IMG/VR virus record: IMGVR_UViG_2513237361_000005
Reading direction: 5' to 3' (one strand)
DNA length: 29,840 nucleotides
Source of the DNA: a virus
Lineage: Duplodnaviria; Heunggongvirae; Uroviricota; Caudoviricetes
The position numbers and the translations under genes were made by a program. This document shows, one piece after another, positions 3,527-23,237 of the stretch. Every line of letters starts with the position of its first letter. The first letter of the stretch is position 1. The notes under the pieces are model-generated. The model saw nothing but the letters and a program-made list of their open reading frames with translations. It was not told the DNA's origin and searched no databases.

Positions 3527-5801
3527 AGCCTCCGGGCGTTTTGTCCCTCCGTCAGCATTTGCCGCAGGCACCGGTAAGGCGTTTACCGGTGCTTATGCAT
3601 GGAACGCGCCACGCGAGGCCGTCGGGCGCGAAAGACCCCTTACACGTGACGAGATGCGTCAGGTGCAAGGTGTTTTATCCACGATTAACCGCCTGCCTTA
3701 CTTTTTGCGCTCGCTGTTTACTTCACGCTATGACTACATCCGGCGCAATAAAAGCCCGGTGCACGGGTTTTATTTCCTCACATCCACTTTTCAGCGTCGT
3801 TTATGGCCGCGCATTGAGCGTGTGAATCAGCGCCATGAAATGAACACCGACGCGTCGTTGCTGTTTCTGGCAGAGCGTGACCACTATGCGCGCCTGCCGG
3901 GAATGAATGACAAGGAGCTGAAAAAGTTTGCCGCCCGTATCTCATCACAGCTTTTCATGATGTATGAGGAACTCTGCGATGCCTGGGTGGATGCGCATGG
4001 CGAAAAAGAATCGCTGTTTACGGATGAGGCGCAGGCACATCTGTATGGTCATGTTGCTGGCGCTGCACGTGCTTTCAATATTTCCCCTCTCTACTGGAAA
4101 AAATACCGTAAAGGGCAGATGACCACGAGGCAGGCATATTCTGCCATTGCCCGTCTGTTTAACGATGAGTGGTGGATTAGTCAGCTTAAAGGCCAGCGTA
4201 TGCGCTGGCATGAGGCGTTACTGATTGCTGTCGGGGAGGTCAATAAAGACCGTTCTCCTTATGCCAGTAAACATGCCATTCGTGATGTGCGTGCGCGCCG
4301 CCAGGCAAATCTGGAGTTTCTTAAATCGTGTGACCTTGAAAACAGGGAAACCGGCGAGCGCATCGACCTTATCAGTAAGGTGATGGGCAGTATTTCTAAT
4401 CCTGAAATTCGCCGGATGGAGCTGATGAACACCATTGCCGGTATTGAGCGTTACGCCGCTGCAGAGGGTGATGTGGGGATGTTTATCACGCTGACCGCGC
4501 CGTCAAAGTATCACCCGACACGTCAGGTCGGAAAAGGCGAAAGTAAAACCGTGCAGCTTAATCACGGCTGGAACGATGAGGCATTTAATCCAAAGGATGC
4601 GCAGCGTTATCTCTGCCGTATCTGGAGCCTGATGCGCACGGCATTCAAGGATAATGATTTACAGGTCTACGGTTTGCGTGTCGTCGAGCCACACCACGAC
4701 GGAACGCCGCACTGGCATATGATGCTTTTTTGTAATCCACGCCAGCGTAACCAGATTATCGAAATCATGCGTCGCTATGCGCTCAAAGAGGATGGCGACG
4801 AAAGAGGAGCCGCGCGAAACCGTTTTCAGGCAAAACATCTTAACCGGGGCGGTGCTGCGGGGTATATCGCGAAATACATCTCAAAAAATATCGACGGCTA
4901 TGCACTGGATGGGCTGCTCGATAACGATACCGGCAGGCCGCTGAAAGATACTGCCGCGGCTGTTACCGCATGGGCGTCAACGTGGCGTATTCCGCAATTT
5001 AAAACGGTTGGCCTGCCGACAATGGGGGCTTACCGTGAACTACGCAAATTGCCTCGCGGCGTCAGCATTGCTGATGAGTTTGACGAGCGCGTCGAGGCTG
5101 CACGCGCCGCCGCAGACAGTGGTGATTTTGCGCTGTATATCAGCGCGCAGGGCGGGGCAAATGTCCCGCGCGATTGTCAGACTGTCAGGGTCGCCCGTAG
5201 TCCGTCGGATGACGTTAACGAGTACGAGGAAGAAGTCGAGAGAGTGGTCGGCATTTACGCGCCGCATCTCGGCGCGCGTCATATTCATATCACCAGAACC
5301 ACGGACTGGCGCATTGTGCCGAAAGTGCCGGTCGTTGAGCCTTTGACTTTAAAAAGCGGCATCGCCGCGCCTCGGAGTCCTGTCAATAACTGTGGAAAGC
5401 TCACCGGTGGTGATACTTCGTTACCGGCTCCCACACCTTCTGAACACGCCGCAGCAGTGCTTAATCTGGTTGATGATGGTGTTATCGAATGGAATGACCC
5501 GGAGGTCGTGAGGGCGCTCAGGGGCGCATTAAAACACGACCTGAGAACACCAAACCGTCAGCAAAGAAACGGAAGCCCGTTAAAACCACATGAAATTGCA
5601 CCATCGGCCAGACTGACCCGGTCGGAAAGAATGCAAATTACCCGTATCCGCGTTGACCTTGCTCAGAACGGTATCAGGCCGCAGCGATGGGAGCTTGAGG
5701 CGCTGGCGCGTGGCGCGACCGTAAATTATGACGGGAAAAAATTCACGTATCCGGTCGCTGATGAGTGGCCGGGATTCTCAACAGTAATGGAGTGGAGATG
5801 A
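3516..5801 (+). CDS. A: replication initiation endonuclease gpA (rolling-circle Rep, HUH class)
   Basis: Starting at ATG 3516 gives 761 aa, the P2 gpA length. Contains an HUH-type motif (PHWHMMLF) and a tyrosine pair (AGYIAKYISK) typical of rolling-circle initiators. Confidence 0.9.
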   Translation: MAVKASGRFVPPSAFAAGTGKAFTGAYAWNAPREAVGRERPLTRDEMRQVQGVLSTINRLPYFLRSLFTSRYDYIRRNKSPVHGFYFLTSTFQRRLWPRIERVNQRHEMNTDASLLFLAERDHYARLPGMNDKELKKFAARISSQLFMMYEELCDAWVDAHGEKESLFTDEAQAHLYGHVAGAARAFNISPLYWKKYRKGQMTTRQAYSAIARLFNDEWWISQLKGQRMRWHEALLIAVGEVNKDRSPYASKHAIRDVRARRQANLEFLKSCDLENRETGERIDLISKVMGSISNPEIRRMELMNTIAGIERYAAAEGDVGMFITLTAPSKYHPTRQVGKGESKTVQLNHGWNDEAFNPKDAQRYLCRIWSLMRTAFKDNDLQVYGLRVVEPHHDGTPHWHMMLFCNPRQRNQIIEIMRRYALKEDGDERGAARNRFQAKHLNRGGAAGYIAKYISKNIDGYALDGLLDNDTGRPLKDTAAAVTAWASTWRIPQFKTVGLPTMGAYRELRKLPRGVSIADEFDERVEAARAAADSGDFALYISAQGGANVPRDCQTVRVARSPSDDVNEYEEEVERVVGIYAPHLGARHIHITRTTDWRIVPKVPVVEPLTLKSGIAAPRSPVNNCGKLTGGDTSLPAPTPSEHAAAVLNLVDDGVIEWNDPEVVRALRGALKHDLRTPNRQQRNGSPLKPHEIAPSARLTRSERMQITRIRVDLAQNGIRPQRWELEALARGATVNYDGKKFTYPVADEWPGFSTVMEWR

Positions 5802-6253
5802 TGGCAAAAATTCACGAGGTAAAGCTGCACGCAAAATATTTCGACCTTGTGCTGGAAGGAAAGAAACGCGCAGAGTTTCGGAAAAATGACCGTAATTATG
5901 AGCACGGGGACACGTTGATTTTGCATGAATGGGTGCAGGGTGTGTATACGGGGCGAAAGGTTGAAGCCCGGATAACAGATGTTACTGACCTGTCAGACTG
6001 GCTGGAAGATTATGTCTTGCTAAGTATTGAGCTGCTTAATACAGGCGCATATGAGATTGTGAACTGGAAAGAACTTAGTGAGCGTGGTCTGGTATTCAGA
6101 ATTAATCATGAAATTATGCATCAGCTCGGCCTTGCTGTTATGTATGAACCAGAGACGGGGATGTCTGGCGGGGCAATGGTTGCCACGGATGGAGCATGGA
6201 ACTATTCAGATGAACAGATGGAGCGTGCACAGCAAAACGGGTGGCTTGGATAA
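5801..6253 (+). CDS. DUF3850/ASCH-like (PUA-fold) protein with an unassigned C-terminal extension
   Basis: Start overlaps the gpA stop. N-terminal about 80 aa (MAKIHEVKLHAKYFDLVLEGKKRAEFRKNDRNYEHGDTLILHEW...) resembles the small DUF3850/ASCH-like proteins common in phages (recognition by eye, unverified). Confidence 0.5.
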   Translation: MAKIHEVKLHAKYFDLVLEGKKRAEFRKNDRNYEHGDTLILHEWVQGVYTGRKVEARITDVTDLSDWLEDYVLLSIELLNTGAYEIVNWKELSERGLVFRINHEIMHQLGLAVMYEPETGMSGGAMVATDGAWNYSDEQMERAQQNGWLG

Positions 6254-6459: not shown

Positions 6460-6682
6460 AGAACGCCGCCAGTCGTGAAACTTGTTTTCAGGGCTGGCGG
6501 GGTTGAACAACGAGCGAAGCGAGGCGTTAGTTGACAGACATATTTTTACTGCGTTGGTGCCGGTTTTTGACGGTTGAAAGGAGTTAGGTTGGAGAGCCAA
6601 CAACTTACAAATATTCAAAAGTAAGCATCCTGTTGCTAACATGAGGTCGATTTTTTATGTGGATGATGCAAAAAGGATAGCT

Positions 6683-7414
6683 ATGGATACTATAATCGCT
6701 TTTCTATCACTCGCTTTTTTCGTTGCTTTCTTCATCGGGTTAATCAAGCCATCACTGGTGCGAATGCCAAACCGCAAACGTGCAAGTGCGGTTTATCTCG
6801 GAGGAGGTTTTGTATTGAGCATAATTGGTTCAATACTCTATCCAACAGAAAAAAGCCAGCCAGTTGCTAAAACTGAAACATCAACCGTTGCAGAACACAA
6901 AGTCCAAAAAACATTCGAATATGGTGAAAAAACACTCAAGGAATATCGGAACGAGTCAAAGAAAACACGACACGATATTGTGAATAGTTACATTGATTTT
7001 AAGGAAGTTCCAGCCACCGCGTCAGATGCGTTTTATGCCTGCATGAGTGAGTATACATTTACCAAAGATGATGAGTTGAAACTCGGTGATGTTCTTGGGT
7101 GGTGCTTTAATGATTATGAAAATGACCCGAATTCACTAAACAATAAAATCAATCTTGATACATTTCAGAGTAATTTTAGTGGTTGGGATGGTTCTTATCG
7201 TCCATTGGAAAAACTAATTAAAGATAATATGAACGATGATTCATCTTATAAACATGTGTCAACGGTATATCATTTGGTTTTGAATAAAGACCCGTACGCT
7301 ATTGTGAAAACTACGTTTCGCGGTACTAATGCTTATGGTGGAGTGGTTAAGCAGACTATAGCTGCGCGCGTCGACATACGAACGGGAGAGGTTGTATCAA
7401 TATTAGATAATTGA
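6683..7414 (+). CDS. cargo membrane protein: two N-terminal transmembrane helices plus about 170-aa soluble domain of unknown function
   Basis: ATG 6683 with AGGA 5 nt upstream; hydrophobic helices TIIAFLSLAFFVAFFIGLI and AVYLGGGFVLSIIGSILY separated by a basic loop (RMPNRKRAS); coding sequence is strongly AT-rich compared with flanking phage genes. Confidence 0.6.
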   Translation: MDTIIAFLSLAFFVAFFIGLIKPSLVRMPNRKRASAVYLGGGFVLSIIGSILYPTEKSQPVAKTETSTVAEHKVQKTFEYGEKTLKEYRNESKKTRHDIVNSYIDFKEVPATASDAFYACMSEYTFTKDDELKLGDVLGWCFNDYENDPNSLNNKINLDTFQSNFSGWDGSYRPLEKLIKDNMNDDSSYKHVSTVYHLVLNKDPYAIVKTTFRGTNAYGGVVKQTIAARVDIRTGEVVSILDN

Positions 7415-7423
7415 TTATAAGCA

Positions 7424-7452
7424 ATGAGTGCTGAATGGTTTTCTGCACTCAT
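7424..7452 (+). other. intergenic hairpin between the two cargo genes (8-bp stem ATGAGTGC/GCACTCAT, 13-nt loop)
   Basis: Perfect inverted repeat read from the sequence; no following U-tract, so more likely a processing or attenuation element than a terminator. Confidence 0.3.
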
Positions 7453-7479
7453 ATAAATATGAATTTTTTAGGTGATGTA

Positions 7480-7992
7480 ATGGAATATCAACTGGATTTA
7501 CAAGAGAATGCTATTGATAGTTTTAATGAAGCTTTAGCAAAGTATGAGTTAGGGCAGAGAGGAGAATTGCGGCAATATAAATTTGCTATCTTGCATTTGT
7601 CACATTTTCTTGAGCTGGTGTTGAAGTTATATATTGTTACAGTAGATGAAAATTTACTGTATTCCGATTGCTATAAACAAATAGCTACAAGAGCAAAGCA
7701 AGAATCAATCAGTCTTTTAGACGCATATAATAAAATTATCGAGGATGGCGTTGATTTAGGAAGGTTCATTGAAGGGAAATCTAAGCCATATACGATAACC
7801 TTAGATCAGGCACTAAACTTTGCTAAGTGTGAGAAATGCGGCATAACTGGGGTTGATTTTGTAGATATTGATTTTTGTAATGATATAGCTTGGATAAAGA
7901 ATTTAAGAAATGATATTGAGCATTATCAATTCAGACTTACTCCTAAAGATGCGCGCTTGTGTATTGGACGCCTCGTCCGGGGGGGTAGCTGA
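7480..7992 (+). CDS. HEPN-like protein segment; probable N-terminal part of a single frameshifted gene spanning 7480-8416
   Basis: ATG 7480 with AGGTGA 5 nt upstream; helical-looking sequence with R-N-D-I-E-H (Rx4H) at 7906-7923, the HEPN signature; the frame terminates immediately after a G7 tract (7979-7985). Confidence 0.55.
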   Translation: MEYQLDLQENAIDSFNEALAKYELGQRGELRQYKFAILHLSHFLELVLKLYIVTVDENLLYSDCYKQIATRAKQESISLLDAYNKIIEDGVDLGRFIEGKSKPYTITLDQALNFAKCEKCGITGVDFVDIDFCNDIAWIKNLRNDIEHYQFRLTPKDARLCIGRLVRGGS

Positions 7993-8416
7993 GTTTATTG
8001 ATATCTTCGATCTTTTTAATCTTGAAGATGAAGTCGGTGCAGATAACTTACAGATATTTCAAACTTTAGCTGATGAATACTCTCATCGGCTCTCTGAAGC
8101 CAAGAAAGAAGTTGAAGAAAGAGAGGCTGAAGCTTTTTATGGGGTTAGGCATAAATTTTATGAATTGGTCGATTGGAAAGTTTATGAATGTCCTGAGTGT
8201 TCTAACGACACAATGATTCCCTCTGATGAGTCTTCTACGGGTTACAAATGCACTTTTTGTCAGAATGAAGATAGTGATGATATTGATGTTGCTTGCGATT
8301 GTTGTGGTGCGCAGGCTCCCAGCAGCGAAATGAGCATTTGGCCAATGGATGATGGTGATGTTGAGTATCGTTGTTACTACTGTTCAGGGCAGTATCAGGC
8401 AGATAAAGACTTTTAA
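7910..8416 (+). CDS. Cys-rich zinc-ribbon segment; probable C-terminal part of the same frameshifted gene
   Basis: Overlaps the upstream ORF by 83 nt in another frame with no convincing Shine-Dalgarno before ATG 7910; contains CPEC-x17-CTFC and CDCC-x23-CYYC Cys pairs (two zinc-ribbon-like modules); AT-rich. Confidence 0.5.
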   Translation: MILSIINSDLLLKMRACVLDASSGGVAEFIDIFDLFNLEDEVGADNLQIFQTLADEYSHRLSEAKKEVEEREAEAFYGVRHKFYELVDWKVYECPECSNDTMIPSDESSTGYKCTFCQNEDSDDIDVACDCCGAQAPSSEMSIWPMDDGDVEYRCYYCSGQYQADKDF

Positions 8417-8498
8417 TTTGCTGTTAACTGCTAGGGATGAAGTTAAAAATCATAGGACTCATCGTTAATTTATACTCAAATTTGTTTGATTTCTGCAT

Positions 8499-8522
8499 TG
8501 CATACAAAAGATGCATTTTTTT
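8499..8522 (+). terminator. weak candidate terminator for the cargo genes (TGCAT/ATGCA stem followed by T7)
   Basis: 5-bp stem with 7-nt loop followed by a run of seven T; the short stem makes this tentative. Confidence 0.25.
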
Positions 8523-8810: not shown

Positions 8811-9845
8811 TCAGCCGTTGTCAGTGTCCAGTGAGTAGTTTTTAAAGCGGATGACCTCCTGACCGAGCCAGCCGTTTATCTCGCGGATCCTGTCCTGTAA
8901 CGGGATAAGCTCATTGCGGACAAAGACCTTTGCCACTTTCTCAATATCACCCAGCGACCCGACGTTCTCCGGCTTGCCCCCCATCAACTGAAAGGGGATG
9001 CGGTGCGCGTCCAGCAGGTCAGCGGCGCTGGCTTTTTTGATATTAAAAAAATCGTCCTTTGTTGCCACTTCACTGAGGGGGATAATTTTAATGCCGTCGG
9101 CTTTCCCCTGTGGGGCATAGAGAAACAGATTTTTAAAGTTGTTGCGGCCTTTTGACTTAACCATGTTTTCGCGAAGCATTTCGATATCGTTGCGATCCTG
9201 CACGGCATCAGTGACGTACATGATATATCCGGCATGAGCACCGTTTTCGTAATACTTGCGGCGAAACAGCGTGGCCGACTCATTCAGCCAGGCAGAGTTA
9301 AGGGCGCTGAGATATTCCGGCAGGCCGTACAGCTCCTGATTAATATCCGGCTCCAGCAGGTGAAACACGGAGCCGGGCGCGAAGGCTGTCGGCTCGTTGA
9401 AGGACGGCACCCACCAGTAAACATCCTCTTCCACACCACGGCGGGTATATTTTGCCGGTGAGGTTTCCAGTCTGATGACCTTGCCGGTGGTGCTGTAACG
9501 CTTTTCCAGAAACGCATTACCGAACACCAGAAAATCCAGCACAAAGCGGCTGAAATCCTGCTGGGAAAGCCACGGATGCGGGATAAATGTCGAGGCCAGA
9601 ATATTACGTTTGACGTAAATCGGGGAGCTGTGATGCACGGCAGCACGCAGGCTTTTTGCCAGACCGGTAAAGCTGACCGGTGGCTCATACCATCTGCCGT
9701 TACTGATGCACTCGACGTAATCCAGAATGTCACGGCGATCGAGTACCGGCACCGGCTCACCAAAGGTGAATGCCTCCATTTTCGGGGCGCTGGCGGTCAT
9801 TGTTTTTGCCGCTGGTCGCGGTGTTTTCCCTTTTTTCTTGCTCAT
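8811..9845 (-). CDS. Q: portal protein gpQ
   Basis: 344 aa, the P2 Q length; adjacent to and co-oriented with the terminase ATPase gene; cos nearby. Confidence 0.9.
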   Translation of the reverse strand: MSKKKGKTPRPAAKTMTASAPKMEAFTFGEPVPVLDRRDILDYVECISNGRWYEPPVSFTGLAKSLRAAVHHSSPIYVKRNILASTFIPHPWLSQQDFSRFVLDFLVFGNAFLEKRYSTTGKVIRLETSPAKYTRRGVEEDVYWWVPSFNEPTAFAPGSVFHLLEPDINQELYGLPEYLSALNSAWLNESATLFRRKYYENGAHAGYIMYVTDAVQDRNDIEMLRENMVKSKGRNNFKNLFLYAPQGKADGIKIIPLSEVATKDDFFNIKKASAADLLDAHRIPFQLMGGKPENVGSLGDIEKVAKVFVRNELIPLQDRIREINGWLGQEVIRFKNYSLDTDNG

Positions 9846-11616
9846 CAGTAAAACTCCAGAATGGTGGATGTCAGCGGAGTGCTGATACCGGCGGTGAGTG
9901 GCTCATTTAACAGGGCGTGCATGGTCGCCCAGGCGAGGTCGGCGTGGCTGGCTTCCTCGCTGCGGCTGGCCTCATAGGTGGCGCTGCGTCCGCTGCTGGT
10001 CATGGTCTTGCGGATAGCCATAAACGAGCTGGTGATGTCGGTGGCGCTGACGTCATATTCCAGACAGCCACGGCGGATGACGTCTTTTGCCTTGAGCACC
10101 ATTGCGGTTTTCATTTCCGGCGTGTAGCGGATGTCGCGCGCGGCGGGATAGAACGAGCGCACGAGCTGGAACACGCCGACACCGAGGCCGGTGGCATCAA
10201 TACCGATGTATTCGACGTTGTATTTTTCGGTGAGTTTGCGGATGGATTCAGCCTGAGTGGCAAAGTCCATGCCTTTCCACTGGTGACGCTCAAGTATTCT
10301 GAATTTGCCACCGGCCACCACCGGCGGTGCCAGCACCACGCATCCGGCGCTGTCGCCACGGTGTGACGGGTCGTAACCAATCCATACCGGGCGGGAGCCG
10401 AACGGATTCGCGGCAAACGGCGCATAGTCTTCCCATTCTTCCAGCGTGTCGACCATGCAGCGTTGCAGCTCCTCGAACGGGAACACCGATGCCTTGTCGT
10501 CAACAAATTCACACATGAACAGGTTTTTAAAATCGTCGGCGCTGTTTTCGCGTTTGAGCTGCTCAATGTCGAACAACGTGCAGCCACCTTTCAGGGCGTC
10601 CTCAATGGTGACAATCTGCCGCCACTGGCCGTCCGCACAGAGAAGACCACCGGCAAGGGCGTTATGACTGACGTCGATTTCCACGCGTTCGGCGGCGCTG
10701 GCGCGTCCCCGGTTAAACAGTTCACCCGACCAGAACGAGTAGGCGTCGTGCGCCAGCGTGGACGGGGTGGAGAAATAGGTCGAGCGCAGGTGACTCTGTG
10801 AGGCCATACCTGATGCCACCTTACGCAGTACCTGAAAATTCGGGATCCAGAAAATCTCGTCGACGTACAGGTCGCCGTTATGGCTCTGCGCGGTGTTGGA
10901 GTTGGTGCCGAGAAAAATCAGTTTTGCGCCGTTATTGCCCAGGACAATCGGGTCACCGGTCAGGTCAACGTCAACCAGACGGGCAAAGGCGATGATGTAT
11001 TCACGGAACACATACGCCTGCGTTTTACTGGCCGACAGAAAAATCTGGTTATGACCGGTTTTCAGGGCACGCAGCAGCGCCTCGCGGGAAAAATAAAACG
11101 TTGCGCCAATCTGGCGGGATTTCAGGATATCGCGGATGCGGTGCTCAAGCCCGGCGCGATACCAGTGCAACTGATATTCGAAAGACTGCTCAAAGAAAAT
11201 CTGCTCCAGCTTTTCGATGGCCTCGTCACTGAAAAATTCTTTTTCGGTTTGCGCCGCCCGCCTTTGTTGCGGTTAGCGACGTTCGGATTAAGGTCTGCCT
11301 CGTTGCCGGTCTGGCTGTAGCGATTTACCCGTGCCAGTCGTTCAATCTGGCGTCCCAGCAGGTCAATTTCCTTGAAGTCACCGCCGGTTTTCTGCGGTTT
11401 GATGATGAGCTGGGTCAGCCGCGCTTCCAGGCTCATTTCGACACGGCTGATGGGGGCAACGCTGTCCCAGCCGTCGCGCTGTTTCCAGCTCTGCACCGTC
11501 GGGCGTTTCATCTGCAACATGGCGGCAATCTGCGGCACGGAAAATCCCTGCCAGTACAGCAGCGCCGCCTGACGACGCGGGTCGTGTAAAAGAGTGGTGT
11601 CTGTGGTGATGGTCAT
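9845..11616 (-). pseudogene. P: terminase ATPase (large) subunit gpP, interrupted by a 1-nt frameshift
   Basis: N-terminal 5' part (ATG 11616, GAGG Shine-Dalgarno) is in one frame, open to 11122; the remainder is in another frame, open from 11272 to 9845. Total span is 1772 nt (not divisible by 3); one extra nucleotide would give 590 aa, the P2 gpP length as I recall it. Confidence 0.8.
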
Positions 11617-11786
11617 GAATACCTCGCCGTGATGAATACACGGCAAGGCTACTGAGTCGCGCCCCGCGATTCGCTAAGGTGCTGTTGTGTCAGTGATAAG
11701 CCATCCGGGACTGATGGCGGAGGATGCGCATCGTCGGGAAACTGATGCCGACATGTGACTCCTCTAATCACTATTCAGGACTCCTG

Positions 11787-20482: not shown

Positions 20483-22573
20483 ATGAGCACAAAATTCAGA
20501 ACCGTTATCACCACTGCCGGTGCAGCAAAGCTGGCAGCGGCAACCGCACCGGGAGGGCGGAAGGTCAACATTACCACGATGGCCGTCGGGGATGGCGGTG
20601 GTAAATTGCCTGTCCCGGATGCCGGACAGACCGGGCTTATTCATGAAGTCTGGCGACATGCGCTGAACAAAATCAGCCAGGACAAACGAAACAGTAATTA
20701 TATTATTGCAGAGCTGGTTATTCCGCCGGAGGTGGGCGGTTTCTGGATGCGTGAGCTTGGCCTGTACGATGATGCGGGAACGTTAATTGCTGTGGCGAAC
20801 ATGGCCGAAAGTTATAAGCCCGCTCTTGCCGAAGGCTCAGGGCGTTCGCAGACCTGCCGCATGGTCATCATCGTCAGCAGTGTGGCCTCAGTGGATCTGA
20901 CCATCGACACCACAACGGTGATGGCGACGCAGGATTACGTTGATGACAAAATTGCAGAGCACGAACAGTCACGACGCCACCCGGACGCCTCACTGACTGC
21001 AAAAGGTTTTACTCAGTTAAGCAGCGCGACCAATAGTGAATCTGAAACGCTGGCTGCAACGCCGAAAGCGGTTAAGGCAGCGTATGACCTTGCTAACGGA
21101 AAATATACCGCTCAGGACGCCAGCACGGGGCGAAAAGGTCTTGTTCAGCTAAGTAGTGCCATCAACAGCGAATCAGAGACGCTCGCAGCAACGCCAAAGG
21201 CAGTTAAGACAGCATATGACCTTGCTAATGGCAAATACACCGCACAGGACGCCACCACAGCGCGAAAAGGTCTTGTCCAGCTCAGTAGCGCCACCAACAG
21301 CGATTCTGAAACGCTTGCGGCAACGCCAAAGGCGGTTAAGACAGCGTATGACCTTGCTAACGGGAAATACACTGCACAGGATGCCACCACGGCGCGGAAA
21401 GGTCTTGTTCAGCTCAGTAGTGCCATCAACAGCGATTCTGAAACGCTGGCTGCAACGCCAAAAGCGGTGAAGTCTGCCTATGATAATGCTGAAAAACGTC
21501 TTCAGAAAGATAAGAACGGTGCGGATATTCCGGGAAAGGATACTTTCACGAAAAATATTGGTGCCTGTCGTGCTTATAGCGGCGCTTTGAGCACCGAAGG
21601 TGGAGACTGGACTACAGCCCAGTTTATTGAGTGGCTTGATTCGGTAGGTGCTTTTAATCACCCATACTGGATGTGTAAAGGCTCCTGGTCATATGCCAAT
21701 AATAAACTTATTACCGATACTGGCTGTGGCAATATTCATCTTGCTGGCGCTGTTATTGAGGTAATGGGCATAAAGTCTGCAATGACTATTCGTATTACCA
21801 CACCAACAACATCAAGCGGTGGGGGCGCTACAAGCGCGCAATTTACTTATATTAACCACGGGGACAACTATGCTCCTGGCTGGCGGCGTGACTGGAACCG
21901 TTACGGCGATTCTATGTCTGGAACTATTAATCAGGATAGTGGAAGCCAGAATGCCTATATGTCTACGGCCTTATGTTCCGGCACCAGAGGCGGCAAAAAA
22001 TATCTCAGAAAGTTTCGTGGTGGAGAAGGAGACACTATCTGGCATGAAACAGTACAGGGCGGGGTAATTCGCTGGGCGACAGGTAATACTGATGCTCAGG
22101 AAGAATTATCACTCAGCTCTGCTTATGGTCTTCGTTCAAGAGGTGAAATTACATCGCTCAGTGCTAATGGTCTGCGCATTGCTTATGGCAATTATGGATT
22201 CTTTATCAGGAATGATGGCGGCAGCACATATTTAATGCTGACGGCCTCTGGCGATAAATTTGGAACATGGAACGGTTTAAGACCGCTGACTATCAATAAC
22301 GCCAATGGCGGAGTGTCAATGGGGCATGGCCTGAGTGTTACTGGACGTGTTAACCCATCAGATTACGGAAATTTTGATTCCCGCTATGTGAAAGATGTTC
22401 GCCTGGGTACGCGTGTTGTTCAGACCATGCAAAAAGGCGTGATGTATGAGAAATCAGGCCATGTAATTACAGGGCTTGGCATTGTCGGCGAAGTTGATGG
22501 CGATGATCCGGCAGTATTCAGACCAATACAAAAATACATTAATGGCACATGGTATAACGTCGCACAGGTGTAA
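20483..22573 (+). CDS. H: tail fiber protein gpH
   Basis: 696 aa; conserved N-terminal baseplate-attachment part, internal tandem repeats, and an AT-richer C-terminal receptor-binding part. Confidence 0.85.
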   Translation: MSTKFRTVITTAGAAKLAAATAPGGRKVNITTMAVGDGGGKLPVPDAGQTGLIHEVWRHALNKISQDKRNSNYIIAELVIPPEVGGFWMRELGLYDDAGTLIAVANMAESYKPALAEGSGRSQTCRMVIIVSSVASVDLTIDTTTVMATQDYVDDKIAEHEQSRRHPDASLTAKGFTQLSSATNSESETLAATPKAVKAAYDLANGKYTAQDASTGRKGLVQLSSAINSESETLAATPKAVKTAYDLANGKYTAQDATTARKGLVQLSSATNSDSETLAATPKAVKTAYDLANGKYTAQDATTARKGLVQLSSAINSDSETLAATPKAVKSAYDNAEKRLQKDKNGADIPGKDTFTKNIGACRAYSGALSTEGGDWTTAQFIEWLDSVGAFNHPYWMCKGSWSYANNKLITDTGCGNIHLAGAVIEVMGIKSAMTIRITTPTTSSGGGATSAQFTYINHGDNYAPGWRRDWNRYGDSMSGTINQDSGSQNAYMSTALCSGTRGGKKYLRKFRGGEGDTIWHETVQGGVIRWATGNTDAQEELSLSSAYGLRSRGEITSLSANGLRIAYGNYGFFIRNDGGSTYLMLTASGDKFGTWNGLRPLTINNANGGVSMGHGLSVTGRVNPSDYGNFDSRYVKDVRLGTRVVQTMQKGVMYEKSGHVITGLGIVGEVDGDDPAVFRPIQKYINGTWYNVAQV
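21002..21484 (+). repeat. in-frame tandem repeats inside H: about 3.7 copies of a 132-bp (44-codon) unit
   Basis: Unit starts at 21002, 21134, 21266 and 21398, each encoding KG(F/L)(T/V)QLSSA(T/I)NS(E/D)SETLAATPKAVK.AYDLANGKYTAQDA..(G/A)R. Confidence 0.75.
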
Positions 22574-22576
22574 TTT

Positions 22577-23104
22577 ATGCAGCATTTAAAAAATATTACT
22601 GCGGGTAATCCCAAAACTGTTGCCCAATATCAACTGACAAAAAATTTTGATGTTATCTGGTTATGGTCTGAAGACGGAAAAAACTGGTATGAGGAAGTAA
22701 GTAATTTTCAGGAAGACACGATAAAGATTGTTTACGACGAGAATAATATAATTGTCGGTATCACCAGAGATGCTTCAACGCTTAACCCTGAAGGTTTTAG
22801 CGTTGCCGAGGTTCCTGATATTACCGCCAACCGACGTGCTGATGACTCAGGTAAATGGATGTTTAAGGATGGTGCCGTGATTAAGCGGATTTATACGGCA
22901 GACGAACAGCAGCAACTGGCAGAATCACAAAAGGCAACTTTACTTTCCGAAGCTGAATCCGTGATTTTGCCGCTGGAGCGCGCTGTCAGGCTGAATATGG
23001 CAACAGATGAGGAGCGCCGCCGACTGGAAGCATGGGAACGCTACAGCGTTCTGGTCAGTCGTGTGGATCCTGCAAATCCTGAATGGCCGGAAATGCCGCA
23101 ATAA
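22577..23104 (+). CDS. G: tail fiber assembly chaperone gpG
   Basis: 175 aa (P2 gpG length), immediately downstream of H; AT-rich like the H 3' end. Confidence 0.8.
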
Positions 23105-23111
23105 ACACAAG

Positions 23112-23139
23112 GCGGGCTTATTGTCCGCTTTTTCTTTAT
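23112..23139 (+). terminator. rho-independent terminator after G
   Basis: GCGGGC-uuauu-GUCCGC stem (one G-U pair) followed by UUUUUCUUU, 8 nt after the G stop. Confidence 0.6.
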
Positions 23140-23237
23140 CGGTGGTTGTGCTGTCGATTAGCCAACCGGGACAAATAGCCTGATATCTCCGGCACAACTG
23201 AAAATACCACTCACCCATTAACCACGGAGTTAAACGG

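Follow-up and report, generated by a model that had tools for sequence, protein, structure and literature searches.

Tail fibre gene H and chaperone gene G of a P2-like prophage appear to be exchanged in sub-blocks

H and G close the late operon of a P2-like prophage

The 29,840-nucleotide stretch of DNA analysed here (hereafter, the window) is a prophage of the P2-like (Peduovirus) type. Its gene order J, I, H, G, FI, FII, read from open reading frames and Pfam matches, agrees with the P2 annotation, H and G lying in the late V-W-J-I-H-G operon. Gene H (20483..22573, plus strand), the open reading frame between I (PF09684) and G, encodes a tail fibre protein of 696 residues in which Pfam detects a PF12571 collar, four PF03406 repeats and PF21446. 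Gene G (22577..23104, plus strand) starts 4 nt past the H stop codon, directly 3′ of the fibre gene, and encodes a tail fibre assembly protein of 175 residues (Tfa, Mu U type; PF02413). These domain matches, together with the match of G to Mu U, bear out an earlier note, made from the sequence alone, that had recognized H and G of a P2-like prophage. From its collar, operon position, shaft repeats and Mu S/P1 S-related distal region, the product of H can be assigned to the P2-type tail fibre gpH, with fibre formation and binding to an LPS-core receptor as its predicted role. Bacteriophage P2 genes H and G are reportedly the subject of work by Haggard-Ljungquist, Halling and Calendar in 1992 (J Bacteriol 174:1462; cited in PMC13100340).

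A Rho-independent terminator-like hairpin (23109..23131, plus strand), found by a terminator scan as a 9-pair stem followed by a T run, closes the V-W-J-I-H-G operon and marks the 3′ edge of the module. Homology to P2 restarts at 23120, upstream of the pF activator site of P2, and the fun(Z) cargo slot after G, occupied in P2, is empty in the window. An identical H protein is present in two public assemblies, and no match of at least 99% to H-G was found among complete E. coli genomes. As a separate observation, the terminase gene of the prophage appears split, and GCA_000208565.2 carries the same split terminase together with the exact H protein.

The fibre gene is built of a collar, a repeat array and three distal sub-blocks

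The collar, or baseplate-attachment, domain occupies residues 1-151 of H (20483..20935, plus strand; PF12571, E = 2.6e-58). Its DNA is 96-97% identical to that of P2, Wphi, vB_EcoM-12474III (12474III) and fiAA91-ss, and only 77% to that of P37 and L-413C. Further downstream lie tandem 132-bp units encoding 44-residue fibre repeats (21001..21483, plus strand; TRF: period 132, 3.7 copies, 84% matches; four PF03406), whose copy number varies from 1 to 4 among relatives, with two in P2 and four in the window. This array would form the shaft and serve as a shared homology patch; the break in homology to P2 falls inside it, at 21210. The last repeat is followed by the constant/variable junction motif NAEKRLQKDKNGADIP (residues 335-350; 21485..21532, plus strand), which occupies the same place in P37, 12474III, the E. 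coli P2-like prophage remnant S10, fiAA91-ss, D108 S and L-413C H, and directly past which the sequences split by type. In D108 S, the annotated inverted repeat bounding the invertible segment sits just downstream of this motif, and a silent cassette of the 49-kb Yersinia phage vB_YpM_44 (OR545055) opens with the same motif (LQK-NGADIPGKDTF), about 35 bp after its hix-like site.

Beyond the junction, at least three sub-blocks with different nearest relatives can be distinguished, with breakpoints near 21497, ~21895 and ~22340 that were read from pairwise tracks against a small panel and are accurate to about 30-60 nt. Sub-block A (about residues 339-471; 21497..21895, plus strand) is a Mu S′-type proximal variable domain; H residues 338-483 match residues 181-328 of 8JU3 (Mu S/S′) with an i-E of 1e-69. 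It is found in 12474III, fiAA91-ss, P37, D108 Sv′ and the vB_YpM_44 silent cassette and is absent from P2 and Wphi. Over 21620-21920, nucleotide identity is 95-100% to vB_YpM_44 versus 70-87% to other P2-like phages. Sub-block B (about residues 472-620; 21896..22340, plus strand) includes the gp34-type trimerisation domain (residues 540-604; PF21446) and matches both residues 227-339 of Mu S (5YVQ_A) and the T4 gp34 structures. Its nucleotide identity is 100% to S10, 98-100% up to 22160 to vB_YpM_44, and 92-98% to P37 and GMS190, and no DNA match to it was found in P2, Wphi, 12474III, fiAA91-ss or L-413C. Sub-block C (about residues 621-696; 22341..22573, plus strand), the distal fibre tip, aligns to residues 385-503 of Mu S in 5YVQ and is presumed to be the receptor- and chaperone-binding end; the match of H to Mu S (5YVQ_A) covers residues 519-696. 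The nucleotide identity of this sub-block is 100% to GMS190 and S10, 92% to D108 and 12474III, 89% to L-413C and 77% to P2. The tip is shared across families: over residues 631-696, protein identity to D108 S is 97% (DNA identity, about 92%), the other protein identities being 98% for L-413C, about 80-83% for P2, 50% for fiAA91-ss and 44% for the vB_YpM_44 silent cassette.

G is a U-type chaperone whose identity tends to vary with that of the tip

G aligns to Mu U (5YVQ_B) from residues 1-175 to 1-175 (E = 2.4e-101), and its PF02413 (Caudo_TAP) match has an E-value of 3.9e-34. At the protein level it is 91% identical to P2 G, 97-99% to its counterparts in P37, 12474III and S10, and 87-90% to U of D108 and P1, versus 52-56% to U′-type proteins; like P2 G, it is of the U type. 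When U- and U′-type proteins are compared, conservation is lower in the C-domain (35-40%, versus 68-71%). The roles of the N- and C-domains of Tfa proteins come from the Mu complex (summarised in PMC9608196), and by homology to Mu S-U the domains of the fibre would function as they do there, with G binding the tip and aiding trimerisation. Over 13 fibre/chaperone pairs, tip identity and G identity co-vary (Spearman 0.80-0.86), the sequences being related and hence non-independent. The correlation is not specific to the N-domain of G, which the Mu model would single out: tip identity correlates equally with the C-domain (rho 0.86, versus 0.80 for the N-domain), and there are exceptions. One of these is the vB_YpM_44 silent cassette, whose chaperone is of the U type and 83-85% identical although its tip is 44% identical.

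The GC deficit lies at synonymous sites and starts at the end of the collar

GC content is 0.457 in 21485-23104 versus 0.530 in the remaining window, and the 19 backbone late genes have a GC of 0.566 +/- 0.021 and a GC3 of 0.651 +/- 0.043 (minimum 0.587). Within G, the N-domain (22577-22861) has a GC of 0.393 and the C-domain (22862-23101) of 0.525. The same amino acids were re-encoded with backbone codon usage, and the observed GC3 was compared with the resulting expectation. H residues 335-696 have a GC3 of 0.395 versus an expected 0.629 (z = -9.5), and G residues 1-95 have 0.358 versus 0.630 (z = -6.0). Intermediate deficits were obtained for the repeat array (GC3 = 0.488, z = -4.3) and the G C-domain (z = -3.5). 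The collar domain is backbone-like (GC3 = 0.599, z = -1.4), and the control genes I (z = -1.2) and FI (z = +2.6) are not low. The drop in GC therefore sits at synonymous sites, and amino-acid composition was rejected as its cause.

A two-change-point fit to third codon positions from V to FII placed the best low-GC3 segment at about 20935-22960, with a GC3 of 0.414 inside versus 0.649 outside (2*deltaLL = 106, versus a maximum of 23 in 100 permutations). GC, GC3, recoding and change-point fit thus agree with the earlier note, which had judged by eye that the 3′ part of H and G are lower in GC than the upstream tail genes; composition across the region is not uniform. The coordinates proposed there, 21485-23104, correspond to real landmarks, the first base past the repeat array and the end of the G stop codon, but the compositional start is at 20935. 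Indeed, the shift begins about 550 bp before 21485, at the end of the collar domain, spans the fibre repeats and fades within G. The exchangeable, AT-richer part starts at the collar end (~20935), so the repeat array belongs to it.

This trough is not special to the window prophage, since the same one is seen in P2, P37 and 12474III. In P2 itself, H residues 241-669 have a GC of 0.474 and G of 0.438, versus 0.579 for V-I. Fibre cassettes likewise have a GC of 0.43-0.48 in P2 (backbone 0.58), D108 (0.54), P1 and vB_YpM_44 (baseplate genes 0.38-0.40). The window is richest in AT not in H-G but at 6500-8500 (GC ~0.36-0.37).

Blocks of distal H and G have been exchanged recently and differ in their nearest relatives

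The backbone is 93-97% identical to all P2-like phages. Its best match, fiAA91-ss (97.1%, 100% cover), attains only 62% cover and 79.5% identity in the module, and P2, 96% identical in the backbone, has no DNA match across 21210-22352, nor one to H residues 341-630. The S10 prophage differs from the window at 3 positions in 1365 bp (21740-23104; 99.78% identity), versus 4.2% in V to H-N, a contrast between distal block and backbone with a binomial P of 2e-21; upstream of 21740, its identity falls to about 90%. GMS190 shows 5 differences in 897 bp (22341-23237), versus 6.3% in FI-FII and 16.6% in 21484-21893. Finally, 21620-22160 is 95-100% identical to the silent Sv′-type cassette beside hin in vB_YpM_44. 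Exchange has therefore been recent, and the best matches are discordant by block, with no one set of nearest relatives for the whole of H and G.

The earlier note had held that the H C-terminus and G are exchanged as a module. Exchange is real, but these sequences indicate that it proceeds by at least three sub-blocks with different relatives rather than as one fixed module. A single swap from one donor of an indivisible block spanning 21485-23104 is improbable, as the nearest relative switches at least three times inside this interval. The unbroken 1365-bp stretch in common with S10, which covers G completely and H in its distal half, would fit such a swap, but it ends at 21740. GMS190 spans 21485-23104 in one piece at 94.1% (P37, 92.2%), but is 83% identical in 21484-21893 and 99.4% in 22341-23237. 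The joint variation of tip and G identities would also be expected of one module; however, sub-block A, the tip and G of the window recur in 12474III, but sub-block B does not. Moreover, sub-blocks are found alone in other genera, residues 1-132 of the C-half in Salmonella, Yokenella, Pectobacterium, Xenorhabdus and Vibrio, and residues 132-279 in Enterobacter species, and the compositional boundary is 20935 and not 21485.

Far less probable still is that no exchange took place, and that the amino-acid composition of the fibre or fast diversifying evolution in situ made the region AT-richer and divergent. Diversifying selection does act on receptor-binding proteins, and G has a low GC2 (0.375), but the synonymous-site deficit survives recoding with backbone codons, and blocks that have sharp edges and match cassettes of unrelated backbones at 95-100% identity cannot arise by point mutation.

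An active variation system, either an invertible fibre segment of the Mu G/P1 C type or the target of a diversity-generating retroelement, is the least credible account despite the homology of the H C-half to invertible-segment cassettes: the gix 26-mer has 0 matches within 3 mismatches in the window and the AAACCNNGGTTT core 0 within 1 mismatch, the inverted repeats around H-G include none longer than 29 nt and are only 72-83% complementary, there is one fibre C-half and one Tfa gene with no second, oppositely oriented Sv′/U′ cassette, the sole direct repeat is the in-frame 132-bp array, and between I, directly before H, and FI, which starts 133 bp after G, there is neither an open reading frame for an invertase nor room for one. 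The crossover-site search recovered the hix-like inverted repeat of vB_YpM_44 as a positive control, and an invertible segment was rejected for the window, as neither the 26-mer and palindromic-core searches nor the inverted-repeat search revealed one.

A shared cassette pool is the probable source of distal H and G

Taken together, these results make it very likely that H and G are P2-like fibre and chaperone genes whose distal parts were drawn from a shared cassette pool by sub-block swaps. The collar would anchor the trimeric fibre on the baseplate and evolve together with the backbone of P2. All of H beyond the collar, and G as well, would come from a pool common to Mu/D108, P1, other P2-like phages and unrelated myoviruses, distal H being composed of four 44-residue shaft repeats, an S′-type domain, a gp34-type trimerisation domain and an S-type tip. 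G would contact the fibre tip through its N-terminal domain and drive trimerisation through its conserved helical C-terminal domain, which may explain why tip and G tend to travel together. As for the mechanism, we infer that recombination would occur at short conserved patches, namely the fibre repeats, the ...RLxKxxNGADI... motif, the borders near residues 472 and 620, and the G C-domain with the terminator. The RLxKxxNGADI junction marks the place where invertible-segment phages put their gix/hix site. The pool would hold its own GC of about 43-48% in whatever genome, and the region would be AT-richer because swaps are so frequent and recent that the cassettes have not ameliorated to the 57% GC backbone; lower GC could also in part be a selected property of fibre genes, and not reflect lack of amelioration alone.

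In the window, the allele is a chimera of three parts in a single, fixed orientation. A more tentative idea, which we rate at somewhat below even chances, is that the window H combines, in frozen form, both arms of an invertible switch (proximal part of the S′ type, trimerisation domain and tip of the S type, chaperone of the U type) and that a P2 backbone captured this hybrid. Capture may have gone through RLxKxxNGADI, which in inversion-competent phages lies directly upstream of gix/hix; the switch would thereby have been lost. If this were true, the identity of 21620-22160 to the vB_YpM_44 cassette would mean that silent invertible-segment cassettes are now donors or sinks for the fibres of P2-like prophages, and the junction motif and the borders at about residues 472 and 620 would be natural splice points for fibre engineering.

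Host range and significance

The closest phage alleles of the window H/G belong to phages isolated on Yersinia pestis, and a host range different from that of P2, as the earlier note had suggested, is plausible. The receptor of P2 is LPS, and P2 has been retargeted by swapping the distal part of its H (PMC9594776); in the P2-like phage P88, two residues near the fibre tip change host range (PMC5285337). Tail-fibre exchange is already known, since 1992, as an ordinary host-range route of such phages, and the H/G finding opens no new question. It quantifies textbook phage mosaicism in one prophage, with a vertical backbone and a receptor-binding fibre end and chaperone re-assorted among unrelated phages. 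For annotation, this means that the host range of this prophage should not be read from its P2-like backbone; for comparative genomics, that the AT-rich trough is the mark of a shared cassette pool and not of a new cargo gene. The collar end, the fibre repeats, the NGADI motif and the borders at about residues 472 and 620 are possible fusion points for engineering.

Comparison with known systems

P2 has H and G at the same position of its V-W-J-I-H-G operon, and its H is 87-100% identical to the window H over residues 1-240, but unrelated over residues 241-630 (13-33% in bins). The same architecture of H C-half plus G is found in the Yersinia phages GMS190, P37 and vB_YpM_46 (Peduovirus) and in the S10 remnant. 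The S10 H protein is 97.8% identical to that of the window, whereas sub-block A of GMS190 and P37 is just 83-84% identical, and P37 has a different collar allele and about 230 extra nucleotides before the tip.

The Mu/D108 G segment (S-U, S′-U′) and the P1 C segment (S-U, Sv′-U′) have the fibre repeat and the NGADI motif in common with the window, sub-block A being like Mu S′ (8JU3), and sub-block B and the tip like Mu S (5YVQ_A). In Mu, D108 and P1, inversion by Gin/Cin at gix/cix toggles two cassettes, whereas the window holds one fixed hybrid (S′ proximal, S distal, U), and its H attachment domain is of the P2 type, unlike that of Mu, D108 and P1. The silent cassette of vB_YpM_44 covers 98% of 21485-23104 at 83.7%. 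It lies inside a Hin-type invertible segment and has a tip of a different type, and the backbone around it is unrelated, neither V-I nor FI-FII having a DNA match there. Finally, the C-terminal trimerisation domain of T4 gp34 (PF21446; PDB 4UXE, 5NXF) matches H residues 540-604 with an E-value of about 1e-17; the likeness is restricted to this domain, and neither the remainder of the protein nor the gene context is related.

Identity of the H-G locus

The ORF map and Pfam assignments place the late genes in P2 order: J (PF04865), I (PF09684), the tail fibre gene H (20483-22573, 696 aa), the fibre assembly/chaperone gene G (22577-23104, 175 aa; PF02413), FI (sheath) and FII (tube). The locus belongs to the P2 H and Mu-U/P2-G families. 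The 7-kb stretch around 21485-23104 matches 247 phage records, among them Yersinia phage P37, at 92.5% over 100% of the query, and P2, at 94% over 84% of it. The exact H protein was found in two NCBI assemblies, one of which, GCA_000208565.2, has the terminase gene split as in the window and a flank, ogr-fieF-pfkA-sbp, that suggests an Escherichia-type context. Among complete E. coli genomes, no H-G match of at least 99% was found, the top match being 96.5%. The split terminase large subunit gene P (9845-11646, minus strand) consists of two overlapping ORFs, of 441 aa with Terminase_6N/6C and of 174 aa with Terminase_5/HTH, and is intact (590 aa) in GCA_020775175.1; the split is either a frameshift making the prophage packaging-defective or a sequencing error. 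Directly after replication gene A, the product of 5765-6253 (162 aa) has ASCH/DUF3850 and DUF7415 domains.

The nearest relatives change along H and G

The V-I and FI-FII backbone segments are 93-97% identical to all P2-like phages in the panel, and a separate search with the region from V to the H N-terminal part gave dozens of records, all at a similar level of about 97%, with fiAA91-ss at the top. By contrast, the module formed by distal H and G, searched separately, is closest to GMS190 (94.1%), followed by P37 (92.2%), in line with the discordance expected from the earlier note. Phage 12474III covers only 70% of the module, fiAA91-ss drops to 62% cover and 79.5% identity, and D108 and P1 match its last 57%. 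DNA homology to P2 ends at 21210, inside the repeat array, and restarts at 22352.

Comparison of protein identity in 30-residue bins along H defined four zones. Residues 1-240 are of the P2 type; residues 341-480 are common to 12474III, fiAA91-ss, P37, D108 Sv' and a cassette of Yersinia phage vB_YpM_44; residues 481-630 are shared only with P37, the E. coli S10 prophage and vB_YpM_44; and residues 631-696, the tip, are common to D108 S (97%), L-413C, 12474III and P37, with about 80% identity to P2 and about 45% to vB_YpM_44 and fiAA91-ss. Identity tracks (60-nt) place transitions near 21500, 21620, 21900, 22160 and 22340.

Two further polymorphisms were observed in H. The collar domain (20483-21000) comes in two allelic forms: at the nucleotide level, P37 and L-413C share only 77% identity with the window there, whereas their V-I genes, immediately upstream, are 96-97% identical, indicating that the baseplate-attachment end is exchanged among P2-like phages too. 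In addition, P37 H is longer than that of the window by about 230 nucleotides immediately ahead of the tip (5213-5443 of the P37 sequence, L002; between 22344 and 22370 of the window), so that length varies at a block border here as well.

Blocks of different sizes moved recently

Between the S10 prophage and the window, 4.2% of sites are different across the stretch that runs from V into the N-terminal part of H, and about 10% across 21001-21739; over 21740-23104 the two are distinguished by only 3 of 1365 sites (binomial P = 2e-21). With GMS190 there are 5 mismatches among 897 sites in 22341-23237, compared with a divergence of 16.6% in 21484-21893 and of 6.3% in FI-FII. These counts show that variously sized blocks, each comprising distal H sequence along with G, moved recently between P2-like lineages. 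The S10 prophage (L005 6622-10622), which carries the closest H-G allele, stops right after G; a BCCT transporter gene and a DUF2254 gene stand where FI would be, identifying it as a truncated prophage remnant.

When a single genome of each species was scanned, residues 1-132 of the distal half of H turned up alone in Salmonella, Yokenella, Pectobacterium, Xenorhabdus and Vibrio, and residues 132-279 alone in three Enterobacter species. This separate occurrence supports a domain border near H residue 472, the same place at which 12474III homology ends (21893). A contig labelled 'MAG: Bacillota bacterium' (L014 4001-4396) carries a block 86% identical to H residues 341-472; finding such a block, of enterobacterial type, in a bin assigned to Bacillota suggests that the contig was misbinned or is a contaminant. 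The horizontal-exchange interpretation is supported, with refinements: exchange proceeds by sub-blocks, not by the whole H C-terminus plus G module proposed earlier, and the boundaries of the module are also revised, as described below.

The module is AT-richer at synonymous sites

The lower GC content of the H C-terminal part and G, first noticed by eye, was borne out: it is 0.457 in 21485-23104 versus 0.566 ± 0.021 in the backbone late genes (n = 19). Expected GC3 came from recoding these protein sequences with the codon usage of the backbone. Observed and expected values were 0.395 and 0.629 for H residues 335-696 (z = -9.5), and 0.358 and 0.630 for G residues 1-95 (z = -6.0); observed GC3 was 0.488 in the repeat array (z = -4.3) and 0.487 in G residues 96-175 (z = -3.5), and was not low in the control genes I and FI. 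The GC deficit is located at synonymous sites. A two-change-point likelihood fit to third codon positions from V to FII delimited a low-GC3 segment at 20935-22960 (0.414 inside versus 0.649 outside; 2*deltaLL 106, with 100 permutations reaching at most 23); the compositional drop is genuine and lies far outside chance expectation. Codon 151, with which the PF12571 collar domain ends, has its last base at 20935. Positions 21485 and 23104 are true landmarks, the former marking where the repeat array ends and the latter the stop codon of G, but the compositional unit begins about 550 bp before 21485 and fades within G.

The trough is also found in P2, P37 and 12474III, and is therefore a property of the family, not of this prophage. 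Homologous cassettes have a GC content of 0.43-0.48 across P2, D108, P1 and vB_YpM_44, in surroundings of 0.58 (P2 backbone), 0.54 (D108), about 0.47-0.49 (P1) and 0.38-0.40 (vB_YpM_44 baseplate genes). The cassette pool keeps its own composition, below that of P2 and above that of vB_YpM_44. Frequent cassette traffic without amelioration would produce the AT-richer module and fits these GC data.

The window is most AT-rich in 6500-8500 (GC about 0.36-0.37), between gene A and the portal gene, at the P2 tin/old cargo position. Three ORFs there lack a Pfam match; the PADLOC candidate defence family PDC-S64 is matched at its N-terminal and C-terminal ends by two overlapping ORFs, 7435-7992 and 7910-8416, which look like one frameshifted candidate defence gene.

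The 3' edge of the module

A terminator-like hairpin (23109-23131) directly follows G. The cargo slot between G and FI (23105-23237) is empty, comprising the terminator and pF region only, whereas it holds fun(Z) in P2, orf44 in Wphi, a SMEK-domain protein gene in 12474III, a hypothetical gene in L-413C and fiAA91-ss, and a Shedu nuclease gene in an E. coli O121 prophage.

Chaperone, tip and host range

The roles of the Tfa domains have been described for the Mu S-U complex (PMC9608196). By analogy, the N-domain of G would bind the distal fibre tip, the conserved C-domain would drive trimerisation, and the chaperone may remain on the fibre. Over 13 pairs, identity in the tip is correlated with identity in G (rho 0.80-0.86), alike for both G domains and with exceptions. 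The host range of the P2-like phage P88 is altered by changes close to its fibre tip (PMC5285337), and P2 was retargeted from LPS to OmpC by swapping the distal part of its H (PMC9594776). The tip (83% aa) and G (91% aa) are of the same type in P2 and the window, and H residues 341-630 are unrelated. A host range that differs from that of P2 is plausible.

Comparison with invertible fibre cassettes

H residues 338-483 match the solved structure of Mu S' (8JU3, i-E = 1e-69), residues 519-696 match Mu S (5YVQ_A), and full-length G matches Mu U (5YVQ_B, E = 2e-101). The two H matches define its distal part as a hybrid of both alternative Mu-type arms. No similarity at the DNA level links the baseplate or sheath genes of the window to phage vB_YpM_44 (49 kb). 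Its Hin-type invertible tail-fibre segment (L007 4329-9424) comprises a hin invertase gene beside two opposed fibre-C-half plus chaperone cassettes. Its hix-like inverted repeat is AAACCTCGGTTTGCAGGAA (sites 4954-5008 and 8016-8070), and a 216-nt, 95% inverted repeat lies across the fibre ends and chaperone starts of both cassettes. In the expressed fibre the tip is S-like (77% to the window) and the chaperone is of the U' type; in the cassette that is silent as deposited, the tip is of another kind and the chaperone belongs to the U type. This silent cassette matches 98% of 21485-23104 and is 95-100% identical over 21620-22160; other P2-like phages are less close, at 70-87% over 21620-21920.

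A shared junction motif, ...DNAxxRLxKxxNGADI..., follows the last fibre repeat in the window, P37, 12474III, S10, fiAA91-ss, D108 S and L-413C H, and directly past it these sequences diverge by type. The inverted repeat annotated in D108 S at the border of its invertible segment sits just downstream of this motif, and the vB_YpM_44 silent cassette starts with it, about 35 bp past its hix site.

An invertible switch at the window locus was rejected, all three tested defining features being absent: the window contains no gix/hix-like site, long inverted repeat or second cassette, and no invertase-coding ORF lies between I and FI, whereas Mu/P1-type segments combine opposed cassettes, crossover sites and an invertase. 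PMC13100340 cites the 1992 paper by Haggard-Ljungquist et al. That paper reportedly described the horizontal exchange of the distal part of P2 H and of G with the fibre genes of Mu, P1, lambda and T-even phages, and the H-G locus of the window conforms to that picture throughout.
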